Assembly (NCBI GenBank): GCA_964605745.1
Contig: CAZSDT010000004.1
Coordinates: 1-43,274 of the forward strand
Length of the DNA: 43,274 nucleotides
Direction: 5' to 3'
Source: an uncultured archaeon
GTDB taxonomy: Archaea; Iainarchaeota; Iainarchaeia; Iainarchaeales; JAAZKV01
Shown here in pieces: positions 5,936 through 35,879 of the stretch (positions within the stretch are counted from its first letter, which is position 1; every line of letters starts with the position of its first letter). Made by a program: the position numbers and the translations under genes. The notes beneath the pieces are model-generated. The model ran no database searches, was not told the origin of the DNA, and was given only the letters and a program-made list of their open reading frames with translations.

Positions 5936-6268
5936 ATGAATCACTACGGACAACTTGCTTTTGAAAGTCTACTAATATTGTTAATTGTGCTTAGCTCGGC
6001 AAGTATAATACTTTCACTTTATTTACAACTCCATGATGAAACATTGGCTTTGGAATACGCGAGAATAGGAACGCTTGAAGAATTATCAAAACAAAGTAAC
6101 AATGTAATAATTGAAAAAATTGAGCTACAAAAAAAAAATCAAATACCAACAATAACAATTATGTTGGATCAAAATGCGATTATTAACAGCACGGCAATAG
6201 AAAATACAATAAAAGAAAATACAAGTTTAAAAAATATTAAAATAGAAGTAAAAGTTATACGTCAATAA
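5936..6268 (+). CDS. Prepilin-like protein (110 aa from the ATG)
   Basis: MNHYGQLAFESLLILLIVLSSASIIL. ATG 5936 is preferred to the track's GTG 5927 because it starts just after the upstream stop. Confidence 0.5.
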   Translation: MNHYGQLAFESLLILLIVLSSASIILSLYLQLHDETLALEYARIGTLEELSKQSNNVIIEKIELQKKNQIPTITIMLDQNAIINSTAIENTIKENTSLKNIKIEVKVIRQ

Positions 6269-22413: not shown

Positions 22414-24858
22414 ATGATCACTTCCCTTAGTCTGATAAATTGGAGAACACACTCACAAACCACGCTTGAATTTGGGAAAGGAACTAATGTAATTGTCGGA
22501 GTAATGGGAAGTGGAAAAAGTTCAATTGTAAATGCTATTTGTTATTCCTTATTTGGAACATTTCCAGCACTAAAAAACAGAAGTGTTTCATTAGAAGAAG
22601 TAATAATGAACAAACCAAACACCCAAAATTTTGCCCAAACAAAAATAGAATTTAAACAAGAAGACAAAAATTACCGCGTGGAAAGAATAATTAAAAGAGA
22701 TTCTACGAACGAGGCAAAGCTATATGAAAATGATAAATTAATCGCCGGACCAAAACAAAAAGATGTAAATGAAAAAGTTGAACACCTTCTCGGACTCAAT
22801 TATGAACTTTTTAGCAGAGCTGTTTATTCTGAACAAAACGAAATGGATTTCTTTTTGAAACTATCCCCATCTGAAAGAAAAAATAAATTTGATGAACTAC
22901 TTGAACTTGAAAAATATGAAATTGCAAGAAAAAACGCAATTGCCCTGCAAAATGATTTGGCTAAGGAAAATAAACAAAGAAAAGAACTTATTGATTCACA
23001 AAAAGAGGCAATTAAAAGCCACGAAGAGGAAAAAATATTAAATCAAATAAAAGAAGAAGAAAAAGTAATTTTAATACTTGAAAAAGAACAAAGCGAATTG
23101 ACAAAAACAATTCCAAAAATTGAAAAAACGCACTCTGAGCTTTTAGAAAAAGAAAAAATACAAAAAAATCTTGAAGAAACAAAATTGAAAACAACAGAAC
23201 GAATAAAATCTTTGCAAGAATTTTTAATTAAAAACAAAATTATTAATGAAACAAAAACACAAGAAGAACTAGAAGAGCAAAAGCATAAACTGAAAGTAGA
23301 AACTGATTTGTTGACAAAAATTTCCAATACACTTGAAGATTTACTTAGAAAAGAAAAAGAAAACAAGCTAATTGAAGATTTAATATTGAAAATGAATTCT
23401 AAAATAGAAACTTTCAAAGAGGACTTGGCAAAAAACCCAAAAACTGATTTAAGTGAAACAAATAAACTTTTGGAAAAAACACAAAAAGAATTAGAAGATA
23501 ACAAATTAAAATTTAAAGATATAGAAAATAATGAAAAGGAATTATTGTTAATAATAAAAAAATGTGATGAAGAAATAAAAATAAACGAACACGAAATAAG
23601 CAAAATTACAATTGAAGAGGATGAAATATCAAAACTTACGGGAAAATGTCCTACTTGCAGGCAAGAATTAAATGAAGAACACAAAACGCACCTAACTAAG
23701 GAATTGACTCAAAAACTTAAAGAACTTGAAAAACAAAACGAAAAAGTTTTGCAAAATAAAAAAGCAACTGAAGAAAACTTAAAATTAGTTCAAACTGAAA
23801 AAGAAGAAACCAAAAAAATTAATGAAGACAAAACTAAACAAAAATATGAACTTGAATCAACTCAAAAAAGATTAATTGAACTTGAAGAAAAAATAAAAAT
23901 ATGCAAAAATTTAGAAGAAGAACTGCCAAAATTAAAAAAACAATTAATAGATATTGGATTTAACAAGGAAAATCTTGAAAGCGCAAGGCAAAATCAAAAT
24001 AATTCCAATAAGAAAATTAGTGAAATTAAAAACCAAATATCATTAAAAGAACAGGAACTTAAACTTGCTGTAGAAAAAAAGCAAAAAGAAGAACAACTTA
24101 ACAAAGAAAATGAATTAATAAATAAAACTGAAGAAGAACTTATAAAAAACAATTTTAATAAAAAAGAACTTGAAAAAATTAAGGAAGAATTAAATCTAAA
24201 TAAAACAAATCTTGCTATTACTTTGGAAAAAATAAAGTCAAAAAATGAATTAAAGAAGAGTTATGAATTAACTCTTGAAAAAATTACTCAAATAAAAAAA
24301 TCAATTAAAGAGCAAGAAGAACATAATGAAAAATCCACAAAAGCCAGCGAAAAATTGGGTGTGTTTGCAAATTGTTTAATTGCAACACAAATTGAATTAC
24401 GCGAAGCTATGCTTGATACTATTAATCAGGCAATGACAACTATTTGGCAAGAAGTTTATCCTTATGCGGATTTTGTTGATGCAAGACTCTGTGTTGTAGA
24501 AGGAGGATATGATTTACAAGTACTTACAAGAAATAGTGAATGGACTCGAGTAGAAGGAATACTTTCTGGCGGAGAAAGAAGTGCTGCGGCGCTTTGCATT
24601 AGAATTGCTTTTGCGCTAGTCTTGACTAAAAAATTATCAATGCTCATACTTGATGAACCAACCCACAATCTTGATACAAACGCAATTTCTAAATTAAGCG
24701 AAATGCTGCGCGAAAAACTACCAAAATTAGTTGAACAAATATTTGTTATAACCCATGATAAAAATTTAGAAAATGCGGCATCGTGCAATTTATATTTATT
24801 GAAAAGAGACAAAAACAGCGATGAACCAACTAAAGTAGAACAAATTTCGGCTTACTGA
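22414..24858 (+). CDS. rad50: Rad50 DNA double-strand break repair ATPase
   Basis: Walker A GVMGSGKSS, long K/E-rich coiled coil, zinc hook CPTC, signature LSGGERSAAAL, Walker B MLILDEPT, VITHD. Confidence 0.9.
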   Translation: MITSLSLINWRTHSQTTLEFGKGTNVIVGVMGSGKSSIVNAICYSLFGTFPALKNRSVSLEEVIMNKPNTQNFAQTKIEFKQEDKNYRVERIIKRDSTNEAKLYENDKLIAGPKQKDVNEKVEHLLGLNYELFSRAVYSEQNEMDFFLKLSPSERKNKFDELLELEKYEIARKNAIALQNDLAKENKQRKELIDSQKEAIKSHEEEKILNQIKEEEKVILILEKEQSELTKTIPKIEKTHSELLEKEKIQKNLEETKLKTTERIKSLQEFLIKNKIINETKTQEELEEQKHKLKVETDLLTKISNTLEDLLRKEKENKLIEDLILKMNSKIETFKEDLAKNPKTDLSETNKLLEKTQKELEDNKLKFKDIENNEKELLLIIKKCDEEIKINEHEISKITIEEDEISKLTGKCPTCRQELNEEHKTHLTKELTQKLKELEKQNEKVLQNKKATEENLKLVQTEKEETKKINEDKTKQKYELESTQKRLIELEEKIKICKNLEEELPKLKKQLIDIGFNKENLESARQNQNNSNKKISEIKNQISLKEQELKLAVEKKQKEEQLNKENELINKTEEELIKNNFNKKELEKIKEELNLNKTNLAITLEKIKSKNELKKSYELTLEKITQIKKSIKEQEEHNEKSTKASEKLGVFANCLIATQIELREAMLDTINQAMTTIWQEVYPYADFVDARLCVVEGGYDLQVLTRNSEWTRVEGILSGGERSAAALCIRIAFALVLTKKLSMLILDEPTHNLDTNAISKLSEMLREKLPKLVEQIFVITHDKNLENAASCNLYLLKRDKNSDEPTKVEQISAY

Positions 24859-24966
24859 ATAATAAAATAAATTAATTAAATAAAATAATTTTAAAAAAAT
24901 TGGAAAAACACTTAATAAAATACTTATTGAAATAAAAAAAATAGATTAAAAGCTATTAAACTAAAT

Positions 24967-25173
24967 TTACTTTAGTTCATTAGCTTTCTTTTTCTTTGCT
25001 TCTCTAACAATATAACCAGCAAGAATATTTCTTGTAGTTTTTGATAAATGCAAATCCTTAATATTATTTAATTCAGTTTTGTTTTTCTCAAAATTTTCCC
25101 CAAATTTTTCAGGAAATTCTTCAAGCAAAACTTCTCCCTTATACTTAGTTTGTTTAGCTACTGATTTACCCAT
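24967..25173 (-). CDS. rps17e: Ribosomal protein S17e
   Basis: MGKSVAKQTKYKGEVLLEEFPEKFGENFEKNK...TRNILAGYIVREAKK. ATG 25173 is preferred because it has a GGTGAT SD-like element upstream and removes the overlap with rpoK. Confidence 0.8.
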   Translation of the reverse strand: MGKSVAKQTKYKGEVLLEEFPEKFGENFEKNKTELNNIKDLHLSKTTRNILAGYIVREAKKKKANELK

Positions 25174-25189
25174 TTTTAAATCACCAAAT

Positions 25190-25399
25190 TTATTCGAATA
25201 ATTCAACTCTCTTAATCATTCCATTAGGGAACTTTCTAAGAACTGATAAAGGCAAAACTTTCTGTAAAAATTCTTTTTCAGCAACTTGAAGCATACTAAG
25301 TTCGCTAGTTCTTTTAACTAAAGGAGGAGCTCCTAAAGATAATTGCAAAGAACGTGCACTCAAAACTCTTGTTAATTCAAATCTTGTAAGTCTAGACAT
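25190..25399 (-). CDS. rpoK: DNA-directed RNA polymerase subunit K (Rpo6)
   Basis: LTRFELTRVLSARSLQLSLGAPPLV...LPLSVLRKFPNG matches the Rpo6/RpoK core. Confidence 0.85.
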   Translation of the reverse strand: MSRLTRFELTRVLSARSLQLSLGAPPLVKRTSELSMLQVAEKEFLQKVLPLSVLRKFPNGMIKRVELFE

Positions 25400-25510
25400 T
25401 TTAATTCACCAGTAGTTAATATGATAACTTTCATAAAGCAACCTTTAAAAACGTAGCTAAGAGGATGAAAAAAAGAATTAAAATGGCTCATTTTGGCAAA
25501 TAAATGGGTT

Positions 25511-27160
25511 TTATGCAAACACTTTATTTCTTTTATTTGCAAAACCAATTATTTGAGGCTCTGGCAACTTAGTTTCTTTTGCAAAAGCCTTTGCAAGTTT
25601 TAATGAAGAAAAACCTTTTACAAAAGCATTATTTTTATTCGCATTAAGAACCCGATATCCATTTTGCGCAGAAAACTCTTTAAACTTTGAAATAGTTGCT
25701 TCCTGAATGGAAATAATGGATTTAGCAAGCGAAGTTGAGTAAAACTTTGAAGAAGAATTGGTTAATTGATTTGGTAGTTCCAAAAGAACACTATGCAAAG
25801 TGTTGTGAAGAGAACGAGCAAACAAATACCCAAAATTTTCCTTAAAAAACAAATCATTATCAAAAAAACTGGATGCTTTGTGCAAAGAAGCAAGTTTGGA
25901 ATTAGTTAAACGCACCTCTTTTGAAAAAAAACTTTCTTTATTTAAGCAAAACCAATTAAGATCATGAATTGAATTTAAAGAATTTATTGGTGAATTACTT
26001 TTGATTGGTGATGAATTTAATTCAGAATTAACATCTTTACTTGAAATTAATTTTACTCTATTATCAGAAATTAATCTTTTTGCATCAATAAATGGAATTT
26101 GACAAAAATCATCCTTAAAAAAAGGGCCAACTGGAAACGAGTTTAAGAAAAATTCCTTTCTTTTACTTAATCTTACATCCTTGTAAGGCATTTCTTTATG
26201 AAATGAGAAAGAGAAATTATCTGAGGAAGATTCAAAGAAAAAATTATCCTCTAAAAATTGAACTTTTATTAAAGAAGATGGCAGAATATTTTTTGCGTCG
26301 AGAGTAAATGGACTACAGCAAGAACAATTTTTTGTCTCAGGGCCGATGTTGAAAAAAGTATTTGAAAATAAATCAAACCAAATTGAAGAAAAATTTATTT
26401 TTGACAAATCATCTTTTTTTGGAAGAGAATCATAGCCGTTACTAGCAAAAATATTCTTTATTGGTTCAAAAGAAATACTTTGAGCATTCTTAAAAAAAAT
26501 ATTTTCTAAAAACAACTCTACTTTATCATTAATTGATTTAGGAACCATGTTTAATGGAACACAAAGAATATTACTCCAAGAAGAAAGAGTAACTAAAAAC
26601 AAAGCATCTTCTTTATTCATTTTTAGTGCTTCTGAAAATAAAACTTCTTTAGTTAAGACAAATCCCAAATCAAATTTATCCCAAAATAATTTATTTAATT
26701 TTTCTTTTTCTATTTCAACTTTAAACAACAATTCATCTTTCTCCTCAAATACATCAAAAAAAGACCAATTTTTTTCAATTAGAAACGCCCGTTCAGGCTC
26801 TAAAACTATAGGCAAATTATTTGTGTGAATTGCAATTGAAGTACATATTTTTTTTAAATCAGAAAAATTAATTGTTTTTAAAACCAATTTATTTTGCTCT
26901 TCCTCAACATTAAAATTCTTAAAATCGGATTCTAAAATTAAATTTACTAATTTTTCTTTTTCTATTGTATTTGGAAGCAAAACATAAGGAAAAAATTTAT
27001 AACGCTTAACCAATTTTTTGGTTTCGGAAGAAAATTCAACTAACACTTCGTGCCTTTGCTCAATGTAATTTACTTTAGTCAAATAAATCAAGGAAGAATA
27101 ATTCTTGCCTATTTTGAATTGTGAAAAATCTTCACTTAAAACTTCATTTTCTTGTAACAT
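25511..27160 (-). CDS. Truncated family-B DNA polymerase homolog with substituted catalytic carboxylates
   Basis: RYKFFPYVLLP resembles the PolB N-terminal FRPYFY motif. KINFSSIWFDLFSNTFFNIGPET stands in place of motif A (DFxSLYPSIIxxxNxSPDT, Asp to Asn). NGYRVLNANKNNAFV stands in place of motif C (GFKVLYxDTDS, DTD to NKN). No Exo I motif, and only ~30 aa follow motif C. ATG at 27160 is preferred to the track's TTG 27268. Confidence 0.55.
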   Translation of the reverse strand: MLQENEVLSEDFSQFKIGKNYSSLIYLTKVNYIEQRHEVLVEFSSETKKLVKRYKFFPYVLLPNTIEKEKLVNLILESDFKNFNVEEEQNKLVLKTINFSDLKKICTSIAIHTNNLPIVLEPERAFLIEKNWSFFDVFEEKDELLFKVEIEKEKLNKLFWDKFDLGFVLTKEVLFSEALKMNKEDALFLVTLSSWSNILCVPLNMVPKSINDKVELFLENIFFKNAQSISFEPIKNIFASNGYDSLPKKDDLSKINFSSIWFDLFSNTFFNIGPETKNCSCCSPFTLDAKNILPSSLIKVQFLEDNFFFESSSDNFSFSFHKEMPYKDVRLSKRKEFFLNSFPVGPFFKDDFCQIPFIDAKRLISDNRVKLISSKDVNSELNSSPIKSNSPINSLNSIHDLNWFCLNKESFFSKEVRLTNSKLASLHKASSFFDNDLFFKENFGYLFARSLHNTLHSVLLELPNQLTNSSSKFYSTSLAKSIISIQEATISKFKEFSAQNGYRVLNANKNNAFVKGFSSLKLAKAFAKETKLPEPQIIGFANKRNKVFA

Positions 27161-27241
27161 ACAAATGAAGCATTTTTGGTTGCTTAAAAAGGCTTTGAGA
27201 CCAATTTGCCGGCGTAGCAAAATCAAAGATTTTACTTTCAA

Positions 27242-27318
27242 GTGAAGCAATAGCTTCACAGCCCCCAATAAAGCAAAAAGCTTTATTAGGTCGCCACAAA
27301 AGCTAGCGCTTTTGTTGG
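27242..27318. other. Cluster of three hairpins sharing an AAAGC/GCTTT stem core
   Basis: GTGAAGC-aata-GCTTCAC (27242-27259). AATAAAGC-aaaaa-GCTTTATT (27267-27287). CCACAAAAGC-tagc-GCTTTTGTTGG (27294-27318, one bulge). Locally GC-enriched spacers (cagccccc, aggtcg). Confidence 0.5.
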
Positions 27319-27470
27319 TGTAAAGTAAAACTTTAAATGTTGGACAAATTTTAAATTAATCCAAAAATTATTTTTAAATATTTTAAAAATATGTCCAAGA
27401 AATAAAGCAAAATAATGTTTTGAGTATGACATAAATAAGGTTTGCTACGAACAGAGTTTGCAAGAAATAA

Positions 27471-29003
27471 TTATAAGAACGAATTTACTTCTTCAGCTGT
27501 TTTTTTATCATCCGCATAAAATGCTTTTGCAGAATCTTCTAAAGTTGATTCGTGTCTGCTTGGTTGAGATTTTCTCAAACGCACTTTAAAAAAAGTAGGG
27601 GCACCAACAGCTTCACCAACAATTAAAGCTTCACCAACTCTAAGAGAAGAAATTGAATTAATACTTTGTTTATCCAACCCCTCACAAGATTGTGCGATGT
27701 GATCCAAATCATAAGGATTAGTTATTCTAAGAATTACATTAGTATTGCAATTTGCTAGAGTAGTTGTATCTAATCTTTTTGGTCTTTGAGAAATTACTAC
27801 TAGAGCAGCACCAAACTTTCTTCCTTCTCTTGCAATAGTTCTAAGATAACTTCTTGCAACAGCGTGTTCACTTGCAGTTCCTTCAGGGATAAAATTATGA
27901 GCTTCTTCAACAAATAAAGCAAACGGAGGAATCTTTTTACTTACCCCTCTTCTCTCGTGGAACAATTTATTTGAAATATAAGCAACAATAACTTGCTTCT
28001 TCTTCTCCGAAATAACCATATTCAAATCAATTACAACCAACTGATTTGGTTTTACAAAATCAACAATACCCGGTTCATCAATTTTCCCAAAAATATTTAA
28101 TTCTTCCAATTCAGAAATAATCCCATACAAAGAACTTTGAGTTTTTTCATTATCAATAGAATCAATTTCCGATTTCACTGCAGTTAAATCAAATGGACCT
28201 GAACCAGAACGCATTTCTTCATTTAATTTATTTAAAATTCTCCCCAAAGCTCTTTTTTGATTTGGAGAAAGTTCAACCATAGAAGAAATCATGTGAATGC
28301 TTACTTTTGATAACGCAATTTTAATTCTAGTTCCATCAATTATTTTTGTTCTAGCTGAAAAATCAATAAATCCTTCTTCCTCGCTTGACTTCTTTAATGG
28401 TTCTCCAAAGCAAGTATATTCTCCATGAGTATCAAAAACAACTACACCAATTTGGCCCTGCTCTTTTTTTCTAACTAAAAGTTCTTCAAGCAAAACCGAA
28501 ATAAAATAACTTTTGCCCGCCCCACTAGTTGCAACAATTGCTAAATGCTTTTGCAAAAGTTTTGATAAATTTAATTTTAATTCAACATCATGAAACTGCA
28601 ATCTACCTAAATTTAATCCATTTTCTTGAATAGAAAGAAATTTTTTTATCCGTTCATTATCTGCACAAAAAACTTTTGTTCCAGGAGAAGGGGGAAAAGT
28701 TGCTCTTTGAATTAAATTATTATTAAAAACCCCAATCGGTTTTGCAGTTGCAACCAAAAACTCCCACTCAGCAGAAGGAAAATTCTTTTCCAAATCCTCT
28801 CCAATTACTTTAACTGAATCAGGCCTTTGAAAATATCTATTAGTCTTAATGACTTCTTCAACTAAAAGCATCATTACTCCTTCAGAGTAATCAAGCTCCA
28901 CAAACATTCCTTTGTGAGCTTTTCCATTATTAACTACAAAAGCAACATTGCTTGGAGAAGGCCCCTCCATTGTTGAAACAACTGTACCTAACTGTTCACG
29001 CAT
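27471..29003 (-). CDS. herA: HerA-type hexameric DNA helicase/translocase
   Basis: N-terminal HAS-barrel-like region, Walker A VATSGAGKSY, Walker B region FALFVEEAHNF, and VVISQRP. Confidence 0.85.
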   Translation of the reverse strand: MREQLGTVVSTMEGPSPSNVAFVVNNGKAHKGMFVELDYSEGVMMLLVEEVIKTNRYFQRPDSVKVIGEDLEKNFPSAEWEFLVATAKPIGVFNNNLIQRATFPPSPGTKVFCADNERIKKFLSIQENGLNLGRLQFHDVELKLNLSKLLQKHLAIVATSGAGKSYFISVLLEELLVRKKEQGQIGVVVFDTHGEYTCFGEPLKKSSEEEGFIDFSARTKIIDGTRIKIALSKVSIHMISSMVELSPNQKRALGRILNKLNEEMRSGSGPFDLTAVKSEIDSIDNEKTQSSLYGIISELEELNIFGKIDEPGIVDFVKPNQLVVIDLNMVISEKKKQVIVAYISNKLFHERRGVSKKIPPFALFVEEAHNFIPEGTASEHAVARSYLRTIAREGRKFGAALVVISQRPKRLDTTTLANCNTNVILRITNPYDLDHIAQSCEGLDKQSINSISSLRVGEALIVGEAVGAPTFFKVRLRKSQPSRHESTLEDSAKAFYADDKKTAEEVNSFL

Positions 29004-29084
29004 AATACAATAAGTAGAATTAGTTGTTTTTAAATTAGTTAGGGAGTAAATTACCGGCGCAAAGTTCCATTTTTTTTAAAAAAA

Positions 29085-29312
29085 CTAAATTCTTGGTCTT
29101 TTGACTTTAAAAGATTTTAATAATTTTTTAGCCGCAGCACGACTAGCAGCTGCTTTTTTTAATTCGACTTTTCTAGCAAGAACTGCTTTTTCTATAAGAA
29201 GAAATCTTGGGTTTAATGAATCTGTTTTTAATTTACTTGCTCTTGCATTAATCTGAGCCATTTGGGTTTCTATTTCTTTTATTTTTTGTTTTCGTTCTGC
29301 ATCAGTCGCCAT
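29085..29312 (-). CDS. Small basic coiled-coil protein, unknown function
   Basis: 75 aa, K/A/R-rich. Abuts the stop of the upstream HAD gene, so likely co-transcribed. Confidence 0.4.
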   Translation of the reverse strand: MATDAERKQKIKEIETQMAQINARASKLKTDSLNPRFLLIEKAVLARKVELKKAAASRAAAKKLLKSFKVKRPRI

Positions 29313-29969
29313 TTACAACTCACCTAACACTTTATTTATATCCTTTAAAGTATTTAATTCAAACTCGGGCGTAACTTTTGCTAAATCAAAACTCTTACCC
29401 TTACGATTAATCCAAGCGTTATGCATGCCCATACTTTGCGCACCAATAATATCACTTCTTAAAGAATCCCCAACCATTAATGCTTCACTTTCTTTTACTT
29501 TAAAATGCTTTAAGACAGTTTGAAACATTTTCTTATCCGGCTTAATTGCACCAATTTTATAACTCAAACCCAAAAAATCAAAATACTTTGAAACACTAAT
29601 TTTTTTATCAACCTTTTCAAAAGCAATACTTTCTGTATTAGTAAGCAAAGCCAATTTGTAACCATCCTTACGAAGCATTTCTAAAACACTTACAACCTCA
29701 GGAAAAAAACAAATAGTATTCAAACGATTTGTAAAAACCTCATACAACTCAGCTTCCAAAACAGCAGAGTCTGTGCCAAATTCTTTTAAAAAATCTTTTC
29801 TTAATTCACTAAAATTTTTATAATTTTTTAATTGAGTTGCACGCTCATACCTTGCAAGATAATCTCCCAAAGACACTCCTTGGTTTTTAATTAAAGAAAA
29901 TAAAAAAGGCCAATCAATAGTAGTTGGAATTAAAGTATTCCACAAATCAAAAATAACGAGTTTAATCAT
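29313..29969 (-). CDS. HAD-superfamily hydrolase, subfamily IA
   Basis: Motif I VIFDLWNTLI, motif II LLTNT, motif III/IV K...MVGDSLRSDIIGA. Confidence 0.8.
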   Translation of the reverse strand: MIKLVIFDLWNTLIPTTIDWPFLFSLIKNQGVSLGDYLARYERATQLKNYKNFSELRKDFLKEFGTDSAVLEAELYEVFTNRLNTICFFPEVVSVLEMLRKDGYKLALLTNTESIAFEKVDKKISVSKYFDFLGLSYKIGAIKPDKKMFQTVLKHFKVKESEALMVGDSLRSDIIGAQSMGMHNAWINRKGKSFDLAKVTPEFELNTLKDINKVLGEL

Positions 29970-30078
29970 TCAACCAACAACCCAAATTTATTTAATTTAA
30001 AAAAAATTAATTTAATCATTTTTTTCACAAACACAAAATAATTAAAGTTCATACTTAAAAAAGCTTACTTTTAGAATT

Positions 30079-31161
30079 TTATCCAAAAGGTCTGTTTGTT
30101 CTACGCATCCTAATTTTGCTTCCAAGTTTATCTACTAATCTTTCATACACTACACTAATTTCCTGCTCATTTAATCCTGCTCTAAGATCAGCTTCAATTA
30201 AAACACTTGGAAAAGAATATTCTTTATGAAGAGAAGACAAAGAAAATACCACTCCTGCAATTTGGTTAGCAACACCCAACAAATCAGATTTATCTTTTAA
30301 AATAAATTCTACTCGAAGAGGTTTATCAAATAAAGAACATTTTAAATAAAAAACAAAAATACTCTTAGCCCATTCTGGCGAATAATCTTTTAGAATTACA
30401 TGCTTAGAAACATCATCAGTATAAGGAAAAGCAAAAGTTCTCTCCCCCTCTACTAAATAATAATCTAGTAAAGAAGCATCAAACGAATTATCAAGAAGTC
30501 TTGATTCTATTTTTGATTTACTATTAGGAATTATTTCTTCTTGTAAAATTTGCCTAAAACGCGTACCCCGAGAATCCTCAACACAACCTATTAAAATAGT
30601 TGAATTAATTTGGGCAATTTTATACAACTGTTCAAACAATTTAACAATGGAAAAATAATCTTCATTAATTCCAGACTCCTTTCTTGGTTTATCCTGATAC
30701 TGTGGAACGAGCGAGCCGTCAATAAACAAATACTTTGGCTTGTATTTTATTATTATTTGAATTGCACACTTAACTTCCTCCTCCAACCTAATAAGAGAAA
30801 CACTTTGTGCTTCCTCATCTTTTTCAAGACCACTCTTAAGCAAAATAGGTTCAGGAAAAGAAAATGGAGCAGGAAAATAATCTGATTTAACTAAGGTTCC
30901 TTTAGTATAAGAAAAAACTGTACCGATTGTTTTAATTAAAACTAAATCAATAAAAGATAATTTTTTTGAAACAAACCCTGAATCAACCCCCGCCACTGAA
31001 AAGTCAAGAGGCCCTTTTTTTACTAAAATTGCAATTGGTTCAATTTTGTTAGGAGAAGGAAGTGATTTTAGAGGAGAAAGAACTTGCGAAAGTTTTTCAT
31101 TAAAAGAATGCCTCTCTTCTATAGCGCGAACCGCATTCTTAAAAAATTCATCAAAAGCCAC
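30079..31161 (-). CDS. nurA: NurA-type 5'-3' nuclease
   Basis: VAGVDSGF and YLFIDGSLVPQ motifs (catalytic Asp contexts of the NurA domain). Size ~360 aa. HerA lies nearby. Confidence 0.75.
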   Translation of the reverse strand: MAFDEFFKNAVRAIEERHSFNEKLSQVLSPLKSLPSPNKIEPIAILVKKGPLDFSVAGVDSGFVSKKLSFIDLVLIKTIGTVFSYTKGTLVKSDYFPAPFSFPEPILLKSGLEKDEEAQSVSLIRLEEEVKCAIQIIIKYKPKYLFIDGSLVPQYQDKPRKESGINEDYFSIVKLFEQLYKIAQINSTILIGCVEDSRGTRFRQILQEEIIPNSKSKIESRLLDNSFDASLLDYYLVEGERTFAFPYTDDVSKHVILKDYSPEWAKSIFVFYLKCSLFDKPLRVEFILKDKSDLLGVANQIAGVVFSLSSLHKEYSFPSVLIEADLRAGLNEQEISVVYERLVDKLGSKIRMRRTNRPFG

Positions 31162-31759: not shown

Positions 31760-31781
31760 CATATGAATACTATTTCATATG
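31760..31781. promoter_or_regulatory. Inverted repeat CATATGAA-n6-TTCATATG overlapping the ArsR-family start codon
   Basis: Perfect 8-nt arms. The right arm contains the ATG at 31779. Candidate autoregulatory operator. Confidence 0.4.
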
Positions 31782-32102
31782 AAACAAACACAAATCAAAC
31801 CACACCAACCCCACAAATGCTTAGAGGTGTTAGGTAATGAAGTGCGCATGGGAATAATACAATTACTAATAAAAAAAGAAATGACAGTTCTGCAAATATG
31901 CCAGAATCTAAACAAAGAACAAAGCTTAATCAGCCACTCCCTAAAGCAATTACGAGAATGCTCTTTTGTTGATTTTAAAAAAAGAGGAAAGCAAAATGTT
32001 TATTATTTAAAAAGCGAAATTTTTAAAGACAAAAATAAAACCTTGCTTGAAATGTTCACTGAACACTCAAACAAATACTGCAAAGAAAAAAATAAAAATT
32101 AA
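31779..32102 (+). CDS. ArsR/SmtB-family winged-helix transcriptional regulator
   Basis: CLEVLGNEVRMGIIQLLIKKEMTVLQICQNLNKEQSLISHSLKQLRECSFVDFKKRGKQNVYYL fits the ArsR HTH pattern. It lies upstream of iscS-iscU. Confidence 0.75.
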   Translation: MKQTQIKPHQPHKCLEVLGNEVRMGIIQLLIKKEMTVLQICQNLNKEQSLISHSLKQLRECSFVDFKKRGKQNVYYLKSEIFKDKNKTLLEMFTEHSNKYCKEKNKN

Positions 32103-33344: not shown

Positions 33345-34841
33345 ATGAAAGTAGAAGGAAATGATTGGGTTTATTCAGGAAAAGTAAAAGAGCACTTTCT
33401 TAAACCACAAAACTTTTTAAAAAATGAAAAAGAAGTAAAAACATTTAATGGATATGGAAAAGTTGGAAATATTAAGTGCGGAGACTTAATGGAAATGTGG
33501 ATAAAAGTAAAAAATAATAAAATTAAAGATGTTAAATGGAGAACTTTTGGATCATTACACCCAGAAGAAAAAGTTCTTATGAAGGATTACTCCTACAAAT
33601 CCGCAAAAGATATAAAAAAAGGAGAGATTATTATTGACGGGGATGGAAAACCTAACTTAATTGAATCAACTCTAGTAAAAAACTACTCAGGAAAAATGCT
33701 TACTTTTGTATTATCAACATCAAAATTTTATAATATTACACTAACTCCAAACCACCCAGTACAAGCTATAAAAAGAAATACTATTTCATTAGTAAATCGC
33801 ACATCTAAAAAACGTTGGTCAGAAATATCAGAGAAAAAAGCAATTAATGCATCACCCCAAATTTACTCTGCGAGTGAAATAAAAAAAACTGATTTTCTCT
33901 TATTTCATGCACCCAAATTAATACAAGATGATAAAGAGCTTACAGAAGATATTTGCACCTTACTAGGATATTATGTTTCCGACGGAGGGTTACCTTCAAA
34001 AAACAGAGTAATATTTTACTTAGGGCTTGGTGAAACTGAATTTGTAAATGAAATAGTTAATATTTGTAAAAAAAATAATTGGAAAACAACTCAATATAAA
34101 AGAAAAACAGAAAACGTGTTTTGTGTACAAATTAATGAACCAAAAGTAGTTTCGCTCCTCAGAACTTACGGCGGTGGCCCAAGCAAAAAAATTTTTTCAG
34201 ATATGATTCTAATATTACCACCAAAAAAACAAATGAAAATAATTGATGCTTACATCAAAGGAGATGGTTGGGTTGAACAACAAAAAGAAACTTGGAAACC
34301 ACAATACTTTATTTCTACTTCAAATGAAAGACTTGCAAACCAAATACAAATAATGCTTGCAAGAAACCAAATATTTGCTCCACAACACTATAGAAAACCA
34401 AGACAATTTTGCTGTAGAGGAAAAACCTACAAAAATAGTGGCGAAATTAATCTAGTCTTCAGAAAAGATACAAAATATTCTAGAATAAAATTTAGTAAAA
34501 AAGAAAATGCTTTTTTGATTCCAATACAAAAAATAATTAAAAGTGATTATAAGGGAAAAATAATTGATTTAAGCCTTTTTGAACAACCAAACACATATCG
34601 TATAAAAGGCATTTCAATACACAACTGTGCGTCAGCAATTGCTTCTACTTCAGCATTAAGTGAAATGCTTAAAGAAAAAGGCGGAATGAGTCTAGAAAAA
34701 GCAAAACTTTTAACTGGAAAAGATATTGTAGAAAGACTTGAAGGACTACCTGCAATAAAAATACACTGCTCCGTTCTTGGAGATGAGGCTTTACGCGAAG
34801 CAATTAAAGATTATGAAGAAAAAGCAAAAGCTACTAAATAA
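33345..34841 (+). CDS. iscU: Fe-S cluster scaffold IscU/NifU-N interrupted by an intein
   Basis: Extein N (aa 1-69) has GNIKCGDLMEMWIKV...WRTFG. Extein C (aa 428-498) has CASAIASTS...IKIHCSVLGDEAL. The joined exteins give a ~140-aa IscU with all three ligand Cys. Confidence 0.85.
   Translation: MKVEGNDWVYSGKVKEHFLKPQNFLKNEKEVKTFNGYGKVGNIKCGDLMEMWIKVKNNKIKDVKWRTFGSLHPEEKVLMKDYSYKSAKDIKKGEIIIDGDGKPNLIESTLVKNYSGKMLTFVLSTSKFYNITLTPNHPVQAIKRNTISLVNRTSKKRWSEISEKKAINASPQIYSASEIKKTDFLLFHAPKLIQDDKELTEDICTLLGYYVSDGGLPSKNRVIFYLGLGETEFVNEIVNICKKNNWKTTQYKRKTENVFCVQINEPKVVSLLRTYGGGPSKKIFSDMILILPPKKQMKIIDAYIKGDGWVEQQKETWKPQYFISTSNERLANQIQIMLARNQIFAPQHYRKPRQFCCRGKTYKNSGEINLVFRKDTKYSRIKFSKKENAFLIPIQKIIKSDYKGKIIDLSLFEQPNTYRIKGISIHNCASAIASTSALSEMLKEKGGMSLEKAKLLTGKDIVERLEGLPAIKIHCSVLGDEALREAIKDYEEKAKATK
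33552..34625 (+). mobile_element. Intein (358 aa) with a LAGLIDADG homing endonuclease domain
   Basis: Ser1 (SLHPEEKVLMKD), block B TLTPNHPV, LAGLIDADG motifs LLGYYVSDGG and IDAYIKGDGW, and terminal GISIHN followed by +1 Cys. Confidence 0.8.
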
Positions 34842-34865: not shown

Positions 34866-35879
34866 ATGAAAAAAATAATTAAAATAAGCACTGACCCAAA
34901 AAGAAGATTTGGAGCAATGGCAAAACCGGGAGAAATTGTTTTTGGAACACACACACATTTAATTACAAGACCAAAAACGCAACCAACCATACAACAACTT
35001 TTAATTGAAGCCCAAAAAAAAGCAAAAGAAATGAAACTTAAACACAAAATAGCACAAAAATCAAAAAATAATCCAGTTCAAACAAAAATTACTGAATTAA
35101 GACACTTAGAAGCAGTAGAAAATTTGCACCAACTCCGCCGAGCAATGGCGCTAAAAGAATATAATGCACTACAAAAACAATTAAAAAATAAAACAGTAAC
35201 TGATCCAATTGAATTTCTTGCAAACAAAAACTCTATTTACACGCTTGCAAATAGAGTAAAATTTATTGAAAATTTAATTGATGTAAACAAAAGCCAACAA
35301 GAAACAATTAAAAGAGACTTAACTGAATTTTTAAGATCCCCTATTAAATTAAAAGCAAAAAAGTCAATTCAAGTAAAAAAAGTAAGTGCAAAAAGAGAGT
35401 ACACTTTAGAACAACAAAAAAATTTAGACATTCTTTTAGATAGTTTAAGCGAACAAAAAAAACTCGAGGATGGTCTAATTAACATAATAAAACGCTTGCC
35501 TTTAAACGACCCACGCAGAACAAAACATCTTGCAGAGCTAAAAGGAGTAAGAACAAATTTAAAATATTTGCCTGACCTTTTGGTAGAAGAAAGCCGATTT
35601 TTTGAACCAAAAACTAAAAAAATAAAAACCAGGTTTGAGAAAGCAAAAGAAGCTGAAATAATCGCTCTAGAAGATTATCAAAAAACAGCCAGAATACTTC
35701 GACCCTGGCACGCAGAAACAAAAGAAATGAGAATTGATTATTTAAGAGCAAAAAGAAGCCGATTATATGAAGAAGAAAGAATAACCACTAGCAAAAAAGA
35801 AAAAAGCAGAGTTAATTCAATGATACGCGCAGTCGAAAACGAAATCATAAAAGCTCAAAAAGAAAAAGAAAGAGAATAA
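34866..35879 (+). CDS. Lys/Glu-rich helical protein, unknown function
   Basis: A 337-aa uninterrupted ORF in a coding-dense region. No recognisable motif. Confidence 0.5.
   Translation: MKKIIKISTDPKRRFGAMAKPGEIVFGTHTHLITRPKTQPTIQQLLIEAQKKAKEMKLKHKIAQKSKNNPVQTKITELRHLEAVENLHQLRRAMALKEYNALQKQLKNKTVTDPIEFLANKNSIYTLANRVKFIENLIDVNKSQQETIKRDLTEFLRSPIKLKAKKSIQVKKVSAKREYTLEQQKNLDILLDSLSEQKKLEDGLINIIKRLPLNDPRRTKHLAELKGVRTNLKYLPDLLVEESRFFEPKTKKIKTRFEKAKEAEIIALEDYQKTARILRPWHAETKEMRIDYLRAKRSRLYEEERITTSKKEKSRVNSMIRAVENEIIKAQKEKERE

Follow-up and report, generated by a model that had tools for sequence, protein, structure and literature searches.

An intein with a LAGLIDADG endonuclease domain at a cluster-ligand cysteine of an IscU-like scaffold in a DPANN-type archaeon

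The DNA analysed here (the window) is a stretch of 43,274 nucleotides (nt) from an uncultured archaeon, contig CAZSDT010000004.1. An open reading frame (ORF) of 498 amino acids (aa) at 33345-34841 on the plus strand encodes an IscU/NifU_N scaffold for iron-sulfur (Fe-S) cluster assembly, which is split by an insert of aa 70-427. This insert is a canonical class-1 LAGLIDADG intein, and the residue following it (+1), Cys428, is on alignment the second cluster-ligand cysteine of IscU. Judged from its sequence, the gene very probably specifies a 57-kDa IscU precursor from which the 358-aa intein, lying between Gly69 and Cys428, would excise itself, the intein most likely being mobile by homing. 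Both the ORF and the limits of the insert (33552-34625) were exactly those claimed in an initial annotation of the window, and all motifs quoted there (SLHPEE, TPNH, LLGYYVSDGG, IDAYIKGDGW, the terminal HN and the +1 residue C428) were present. The features of the gene, all on the plus strand (+), are as follows.

33345..33551 (+): N-extein, aa 1-69, ending ...WRTFG; N-terminal half of NifU_N; 87% nt identity to the intein-free allele
33474-33485 (+): ligand Cys45 and Asp47 (KCGD) in the N-extein
33552..34625 (+): intein, 358 aa (aa 70-427), 41.4 kDa, class 1, Ser1...His-Asn; a 1074-nt insertion relative to contig L001, with matching fold, invariant residues, and nonsynonymous differences far below synonymous ones
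33552..33569 (+): block A, aa 70-75, SLHPEE, with Ser70 as intein residue 1
33744..33755 (+): block B, T134-P-N-H137 (TxxH); aligns to the block B region of PI-PkoII
33915..34379 (+): LAGLIDADG homing-endonuclease domain, approximately aa 191-345 (Pfam LAGLIDADG_3)
33960..33989 (+): LAGLIDADG motif 1, LLGYYVSDGG (aa 206-215), with catalytic Asp213
34242..34271 (+): LAGLIDADG motif 2, IDAYIKGDGW (aa 300-309), with catalytic Asp307
34548..34625 (+): blocks F and G, YKGKIIDLSLFEQPNTYRIKGISIHN; the stretch contains Asp408 and finishes with His426-Asn427, and PI-PkoII aligns with it in block F
34626..34841 (+): C-extein, aa 428-498 and stop; C-terminal half of NifU_N, including His474-Cys475 (IHCS); 90% nt identity to the empty allele
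34626-34628 (+): codon of Cys428, +1 nucleophile and second ligand; invariant; aligns to FGCGAAIA of Methanothrix IscU (7c8m)

Insertion point and intein-free alleles

A search with the joined exteins (aa 1-69 plus 428-498) yielded intein-free proteins (P0117-P0120), each of 140 aa and 90-92% identical to them. One of these, the 92%-identical P0118, is encoded on a 132-kb metagenome contig (L001) that is syntenic with the window; both carry, in the same order, genes for NurA, a small ORF, an ArsR-type HTH protein, cysteine desulfurase, IscU, an unknown protein (334 aa on L001), PTH2, a GTPase, Hjc and a Toprim protein. The related intein-free iscU genes that the initial annotation had proposed to look for thus exist, one of them in full synteny, and a non-intein domain conserved inside IscU, which it had named as the finding that would speak against an intein, is not what the close relatives show.

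The joined extein DNA (423 nt) aligned with the 423-nt intein-free allele on L001 with zero gaps and 88.7% identity. From this ungapped alignment, the window gene has 1074 extra nt (33552-34625) between GGA (Gly69) and TGT (Cys428). The boundary was taken from this comparison of joined exteins, since a MAFFT alignment of the whole precursor gene misplaced the gap. The empty insertion site on L001, at approximately 6178-6237, reads ...AAATGGAGGACTTTTGGA^TGCGCAAGCGCAATTGC....

Three further contigs from independent samples (L002-L004) carried intein-containing alleles in the same HTH-iscS-iscU context. An assembly chimera or artefact was considered and is ruled out by these alleles, by the same architecture in many independent assemblies and by the HTH-iscS-iscU synteny kept in L001-L004. 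The insertion in iscU is therefore confirmed as real, far beyond chance.

Clustered synonymous differences were observed in the three codons following the insertion site, where the window has TGT GCG TCA (34626-34634) and L001 has TGC GCA AGC (6208-6216). Both encode Cys-Ala-Ser, with a full switch of the serine codon (TCA/AGC). These differences may be relevant to recognition by the endonuclease or to co-conversion.

Anatomy, conservation and fold of the intein

About 75 database clusters were found to contain IscU/NifU_N proteins of 480-760 aa with an insert, and the conservation counts given below refer to an alignment of 61 proteins carrying the insert at the site used in the window. Class-1 inteins are defined by Ser or Cys at position 1, a TxxH motif in block B, His-Asn at the end and Cys, Ser or Thr at +1 (PMC4031507, PMC2807308). 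The alignment of splice residues that the initial annotation had called for agrees with this definition: T134 and H137 of block B were invariant (61/61), as were H426, N427 and C428 (61/61, the insert ending ...SIHN at 424-427), and position 1 was a nucleophile in 59 of the 61 (S 41, C 18, A 1, Y 1). Asp408 of block F (F:4 Asp) is D in 46 proteins and N in 15.

The endonuclease domain was recognised by Pfam LAGLIDADG_3 with 29.8 bits, the gathering score being 22.5. In motif 1, G208, Y210 and G214 were invariant and position 213 was occupied by D (44), E (15) or N (2); in motif 2, D307 and G308 were found in all 61 proteins.

An AlphaFold2 model built on the 61-protein alignment had a mean predicted local distance difference test score (pLDDT) of 86.3. 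When it was compared with the PDB by Foldseek, the best matches were all intein homing endonucleases, namely PI-SceI (E = 1.9e-18), TliVMA, PhoVMA, PI-PkoII and PI-PfuI, followed by the free-standing LAGLIDADG enzymes I-Tsp061I and I-DmoI. A profile of the insert, searched against PDB sequences, matched PI-PkoII (E = 9.4e-15) separately in block B, in the endonuclease domain and in block F, and also matched TliVMA (2e-11). Conserved splice residues, fold and profile matches together identify the insert as a canonical class-1 LAGLIDADG intein. A bacterial-intein-like domain was considered and rejected in view of the +1 nucleophile and the conserved host protein.

Several known inteins resemble the one described here. 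PI-SceI (yeast VMA1) and TliVMA/PhoVMA were the best structural matches (E from 1.9e-18 to 1e-12, approximately 410-450 aligned columns), and, when single sequences of the PDB were compared with the endonuclease domain, TliVMA matched best; in these as in the window, a HINT splicing domain is split by a LAGLIDADG endonuclease. They differ in having 11-15% identity, a catalytic subunit of V/A-ATPase as host and Cys as residue 1, and a different orientation of the domains kept the TM-scores at only 0.44-0.59. PI-PkoII (Thermococcus kodakarensis Pol intein-2, PDB 2cw7), the best profile-to-sequence PDB match, is larger (537 aa), has extra domains and resides in a DNA polymerase.

The interrupted scaffold

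When the precursor was compared with Pfam NifU_N, two separate stretches matched. The joined exteins (140 aa), whose comparison with such profiles the initial annotation had suggested, gave one NifU_N match spanning profile positions 2-125 of 127 (E = 1.1e-35). They also matched the NCBIfam models NifU_clost, NifU and IscU end to end, all below the equivalog cut-offs. Since the scores fell under the cut-offs of both TIGR01999 IscU (110 bits, cut-off 192) and TIGR03419 NifU_clost (143 bits, cut-off 188), the protein is best called an IscU-like archaeal scaffold and not a strict equivalog.

Solved archaeal IscU proteins from Methanothrix (7c8m, E = 2e-32) and Archaeoglobus fulgidus (4eb5, E = 3e-29) were aligned end to end with the joined exteins, and RTFG-C-ASAIAS of the latter overlies RTFG-C-GAAIAT. 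The +1 cysteine accordingly falls on the second ligand in FGC(G/A)(A/S)AIA of these structures, as had been claimed from the sequence. These IscU proteins belong to minimal IscS-IscU pairs and share the motifs CGD, FGC(G/A)(A/S)AIA and HCS with the window protein, whose gene adjoins a cysteine desulfurase gene; unlike it, they have no intein.

The predicted spliced product has 140 aa, a mass of 15.7 kDa and precisely three cysteines, C45, C428 and C475, in the motifs CGD, FGC and HCS, respectively. We take these to be the equivalents of E. coli C37, C63 and C106, which act with D39 and H105. C45, D47, C428 and H474 were invariant among the 61 proteins, and C475 was conserved in at least 90%. 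It is reasonable to expect that the precursor would be inactive as a scaffold before splicing.

Proteins of 444 aa from Methanoperedens and other Methanosarcinales (P0076-P0105), which surfaced as extein-only matches, have an N-terminal NifU_N/IscU domain fused to a pyridine-nucleotide-disulfide (thioredoxin-reductase-like) oxidoreductase.

Predicted splicing and homing

By analogy to class-1 inteins, splicing would begin with an N-O acyl shift at Gly69-Ser70, aided by Thr134 and His137 of block B. The thiol of Cys428 would then attack the ester formed, Asn427 would cyclise with the help of His426, and an S-N shift would restore the peptide bond. The predicted products are a 15.7-kDa IscU reading ...WRTFG-CASAIAS..., with ...WRTFGCASAIASTSALSEMLK as the expected ligated-junction peptide, and a free 41-kDa intein. 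The only three cysteines of this IscU would be the three canonical cluster ligands.

The free intein would most likely be an active homing endonuclease, cutting intein-free iscU at the conserved ...TGGAGRACTTTTGGA^TGYGC..., and the cut allele would then receive a copy of the intein through repair. Homing would explain the patchy distribution among close DPANN relatives described below. That splicing and DNA cleavage actually take place is an inference.

Selection, distribution and alternative explanations

The window gene was compared with the three syntenic intein-containing alleles (L002-L004). In every part of the intein, the proportion of nonsynonymous differences (pN) was 0.11-0.21 and that of synonymous differences (pS) was 0.56-0.70, much as in the exteins. 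This contrast, with pN far below pS, is robust. The ratios of the corresponding substitution rates (dN/dS), which are rough as dS exceeded 1 (saturated), were:

Exteins: 0.10-0.19
Whole intein: 0.10-0.15
Endonuclease domain: 0.10-0.17
C-terminal splicing (HINT-C) region: 0.06-0.08

The intein is widespread in DPANN archaea; in a thin survey of GTDB, five loci with the same intein were found, all in DPANN (Nanobdellati). Its distribution is patchy. The nearest neighbour of the window protein by extein similarity is intein-free (92%), and so are those of P0002-P0006, P0009 and P0010, with extein identities between intein-plus and intein-free proteins reaching 97% (P0003/P0123) and 99% (P0005/P0169). 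Fitch parsimony on a neighbour-joining (NJ) extein tree of 61 intein-plus and 120 intein-free proteins gave at least 20 changes between presence and absence with the alleles interleaved, an interleaving that is inflated in appearance by the intein-free sample, which consisted of the best matches to the window extein. Selection and patchy distribution fit an element that is maintained by homing, being gained and lost among related DPANN archaea.

Besides the saturation of dS and the composition of this sample, the following points weigh against a splicing, mobile intein. Within the Ser1 clade, intein identity falls in step with extein identity (75/75, 58/58 and 50/50%), so that the patchiness could be largely the result of vertical descent with precise loss. 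Position 416 of block F, commonly His (F:13), is Asn in the window and K, N or H in the family; the assisting positions of block F are described as less conserved among inteins generally (PMC4031507). Of the two profile scans proposed in the initial annotation, that for LAGLIDADG succeeded, but the intein N-terminal hidden Markov model (HMM) TIGR01445 gave a weak match under its cut-off (E = 0.015). Pfam Intein_splicing was not reported for the window sequence, while relatives match PF14890. With splicing HMMs matched this weakly, it is the fold, the conserved motifs and the related proteins that carry the argument for a splicing domain.

Several explanations other than a splicing, homing intein are possible. 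The intein might splice but contain an endonuclease that is no longer active. It would then have ceased to home and be passed on vertically as a passenger, with occasional losses when it is deleted precisely or when an intein-free allele converts the gene. Co-descent predicts the parallel intein and extein identities, the intein has a guanine-plus-cytosine (GC) content of 29.4%, against 29.6% for the window as a whole, and position 213 is Asn in two of the 61 proteins. The equal GC gives no hint that the intein came in recently from a distant genome. On the other hand, the catalytic acids are kept (D/E213 in 59/61, D307 in 61/61), the extein-like dN/dS of the domain (0.10-0.17) is unexpected for a decaying endonuclease, and intein-free alleles with 97-99% extein identity fit a running homing cycle at least equally well; we consider loss of homing rather unlikely. 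A remnant that does not splice, whether a domain lodged for good in a variant IscU or a dead intein that turns iscU into a pseudogene, is scarcely credible. The weak scores of the intein-terminus HMM and the two homologues lacking a nucleophile at residue 1 (P0039 with Ala, P0026 with Tyr) would agree with it, but the frame is intact, the class-1 catalytic residues are all present and were counted as invariant across the 61 proteins, and purifying selection acts on both exteins and splicing blocks (HINT-C dN/dS 0.06-0.08). Furthermore, 41 kDa of protein left permanently between Gly and a ligand Cys would be likely to disrupt the cluster site of what is the sole iscU of the window, located in a conserved iscS-iscU operon. 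A compensating second copy was considered and rejected, as a tblastn search of the window brought up neither another iscU nor another copy of the intein; the initial annotation was right on this point.

It is also conceivable that the host now uses the intein as a conditional switch, with splicing, and hence the supply of active scaffold, gated by redox state, by Zn or Fe binding or by persulfidation of Cys428, since the +1 nucleophile is a cysteine that itself handles metal and sulfur. Conditional splicing and metal inhibition are reported for the mycobacterial SufB and DnaB inteins (PMC7360933, PMC13347336). The intein is kept across very divergent DPANN lineages under purifying selection, both intein sites known in IscU (see below) are ligand cysteines, and the nearest relatives of the intein lie at cysteines equivalent to C254 of SufB and Cys46 of OFOR-beta. 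Nevertheless, nothing in the sequence demands regulation, the closest relatives do well without the intein, and the clade has mostly Ser1 in place of Cys1, which removes the route through a Cys1-Cys+1 disulfide. Moreover, selfish inteins as a rule occupy catalytic or ligand residues, where sequence conservation preserves the homing target. A switch therefore appears unlikely. A broader proposal, in which a single lineage of LAGLIDADG inteins has come to occupy 'Gly^Cys' sites at the working cysteines of several unrelated Fe-S proteins (the IscU ligand Cys, and the SufB C254- and OFOR-beta Cys46-equivalents) and serves in the IscU of organisms with minimal Fe-S machinery as a switch gated by metal, persulfide or oxidation, is speculative and, in our opinion, unlikely. 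The reading that we prefer is that of a self-splicing intein that is mobile by homing.

Other inteins in IscU

The insertion site of the window hosts at least three types of intein. The first is the Ser1 clade to which the window intein belongs (100% bootstrap, with one Cys1 member nested within), and the second is a Cys1 LAGLIDADG group only about 30% identical to the Ser1 clade. The third type (P0067 and P0072) is an unrelated intein of approximately 295-335 aa at the same Gly|Cys site, with Hint/PT-HINT matches in Pfam and no recognisable LAGLIDADG or HNH domain. A second site in IscU is the first ligand cysteine, GSPA|C...HN|CGD (P0068-P0075, P0272 and P0373), and the inteins there form a separate clade (100% bootstrap); two of them (P0074 and P0075) have an HNH_3-type endonuclease instead of LAGLIDADG. 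Two proteins, P0037 (756 aa) and P0242 (638 aa), contain two inteins each, at both of the first two ligand cysteines, with a mini-intein at the first-ligand site and a LAGLIDADG intein at the second-ligand site.

Two homologues that share the insertion site of the window keep His-Asn and Cys+1, but their inteins start with Ala (P0039) or Tyr (P0026) in place of Ser or Cys. Ala1 with Cys+1, as in P0039, is the residue pattern of class 2 (KlbA-type) inteins, unlike the Ser1 of the class-1 window intein; in KlbA-type inteins, Cys+1 attacks the N-terminal junction directly (PMC2807308). P0039 and P0026 may splice in a class-2-like manner, may contain dead inteins or may owe their residue 1 to a sequencing error.

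Nearest inteins in other hosts

When the intein alone was searched against 1.84 billion representatives, 1380 matches were obtained at E <= 1e-3. The best matches outside IscU were inteins of SufB (8 of the top 10), inserted at EG|C(T/S)AP (P0239-P0254); comparison with E. coli sufB (L010, 5523-7010) placed this site at the equivalent of E. coli C254. An OFOR/PFOR-beta intein (P0240), inserted at GIG|CGSK, was also among the best non-IscU matches, and its +1 Cys aligned with Cys46 of Sulfolobus tokodaii OFOR-beta (5b46_B), which we take to be one of four [4Fe-4S] ligands (no confirmation was found in the literature). The SufB and OFOR-beta inteins share a site after Gly and before a critical Fe-S-related Cys, and their termini, CLPxxE...GFAVHN, are closely like those of the Cys1-type IscU inteins. 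Mean identities were as follows.

Cys1 IscU type versus SufB inteins: 34%
Cys1 IscU type versus OFOR-beta intein: 39%
Ser1 type versus Cys1 type and versus OFOR-beta intein: 29-30%
Versus other inteins: 23-28%

In an NJ tree (distances computed with numpy), the deep grouping of the inteins at the second-ligand site of IscU (IscU-b) with those of OFOR-beta and SufB had bootstrap values of just 21-43%, so a super-group is not claimed; the apparent loose association of these sequences is a lead, not a result.

The SufB inteins of Mycobacterium tuberculosis (Mtu SufB, Pps1) and of archaeal and metagenomic origin are, like the window intein, class-1 LAGLIDADG inteins in an Fe-S scaffold that end in His-Asn with Cys at +1. 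The Mtu SufB intein has 359 aa with block B His67 (PMC8891592), and the window intein 358 aa with His68. They differ in that the host is SufB and not IscU, residue 1 is Cys where the window has Ser, and the window organism is a DPANN archaeon. Identity of SufB inteins to the window intein is approximately 25%, with 43% bootstrap for the joint clade, the Mtu intein being compared by its published description.

Novelty and significance

No description of an intein in IscU or NifU was found in the full-text literature searched, which included the main text of the 2016 intein survey (Novikova). To this extent the suggestion in the initial annotation that the insertion site was undescribed holds for the literature; in databases, about 75 clusters already contain such proteins, and one automatic annotation from the Joint Genome Institute (JGI) reads 'NifU-like protein.../intein/homing endonuclease'. 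What appears new is the host protein and the insertion sites, the intein itself being a mechanistically standard class-1 type with a LAGLIDADG endonuclease.

Inteins are thought to persist at the most conserved, indispensable positions of essential proteins, and whether some of them have turned into environmental sensors is debated, mainly for mycobacterial SufB, DnaB and RecA. The IscU intein adds a second Fe-S scaffold to the intein hosts, as a companion to the well-studied SufB intein. As its splice nucleophile doubles as a cluster ligand, it would allow a clean test, in a natural system, of whether splicing is under the control of metal, sulfur or redox chemistry at that cysteine. The abundant intein-plus/intein-free pairs, with exteins up to 99% identical, are material for studying the homing cycle in uncultivated archaea. 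NCBI names these proteins of 480-600 aa plainly 'iron-sulfur cluster assembly scaffold protein'; as these names are silent on the intein, surveys of DPANN gene content may mis-size or mis-align IscU.

Gene neighbourhood and organism

The initial annotation had placed iscU in an ArsR-iscS-iscU operon, and HTH_5 and Aminotran_5 genes were indeed found upstream. The iscS stop codon lies 6 nt ahead of the iscU start (TGA AGGAAA ATG), and the pairing of iscU with a cysteine desulfurase gene is kept in L001-L004.

31779..32102 (+): ArsR-family HTH regulator, first gene of the cluster (Pfam HTH_5, E = 8e-11); precedes iscS-iscU in L001-L004
32166..33338 (+): cysteine desulfurase (IscS/NifS-like, class-V aminotransferase), 390 aa (Aminotran_5, E = 5e-70), with the active-site loop STGSACAS

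Directly 3' of iscU is a Lys/Glu-rich ORF of 337 aa (34866-35879, +) with no match in Pfam; its position and size (334-335 aa) are kept in the syntenic L001 and L002.

The window appears by similarity to come from a DPANN-type archaeon. It contains archaeal markers, including Hjc, PTH2, NurA/HerA, a Rad50-like protein, ABCE1, Elp3, an archaeal CCA-adding enzyme, a DnaG-type Toprim protein, aRF1 and TYW3, and the named relatives of the host protein belong to Candidatus Iainarchaeum, Diapherotrites, Pacearchaeota, Woesearchaeota and Nanoarchaeota. Two of these markers, ABCE1 and Elp3, are themselves Fe-S proteins, so that the organism must have a functional scaffold.

A DNA-repair cluster occupies both strands at 22414-31161; no Mre11 was recognisable among the window ORFs scanned. 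Its genes are:

22414-24858 (+): Rad50/SbcC-like ATPase
25511-27268 (-): ORF of 585 aa, no match in Pfam
27471-29003 (-): HerA
29313-29969 (-): HAD hydrolase
30079-31161 (-): NurA

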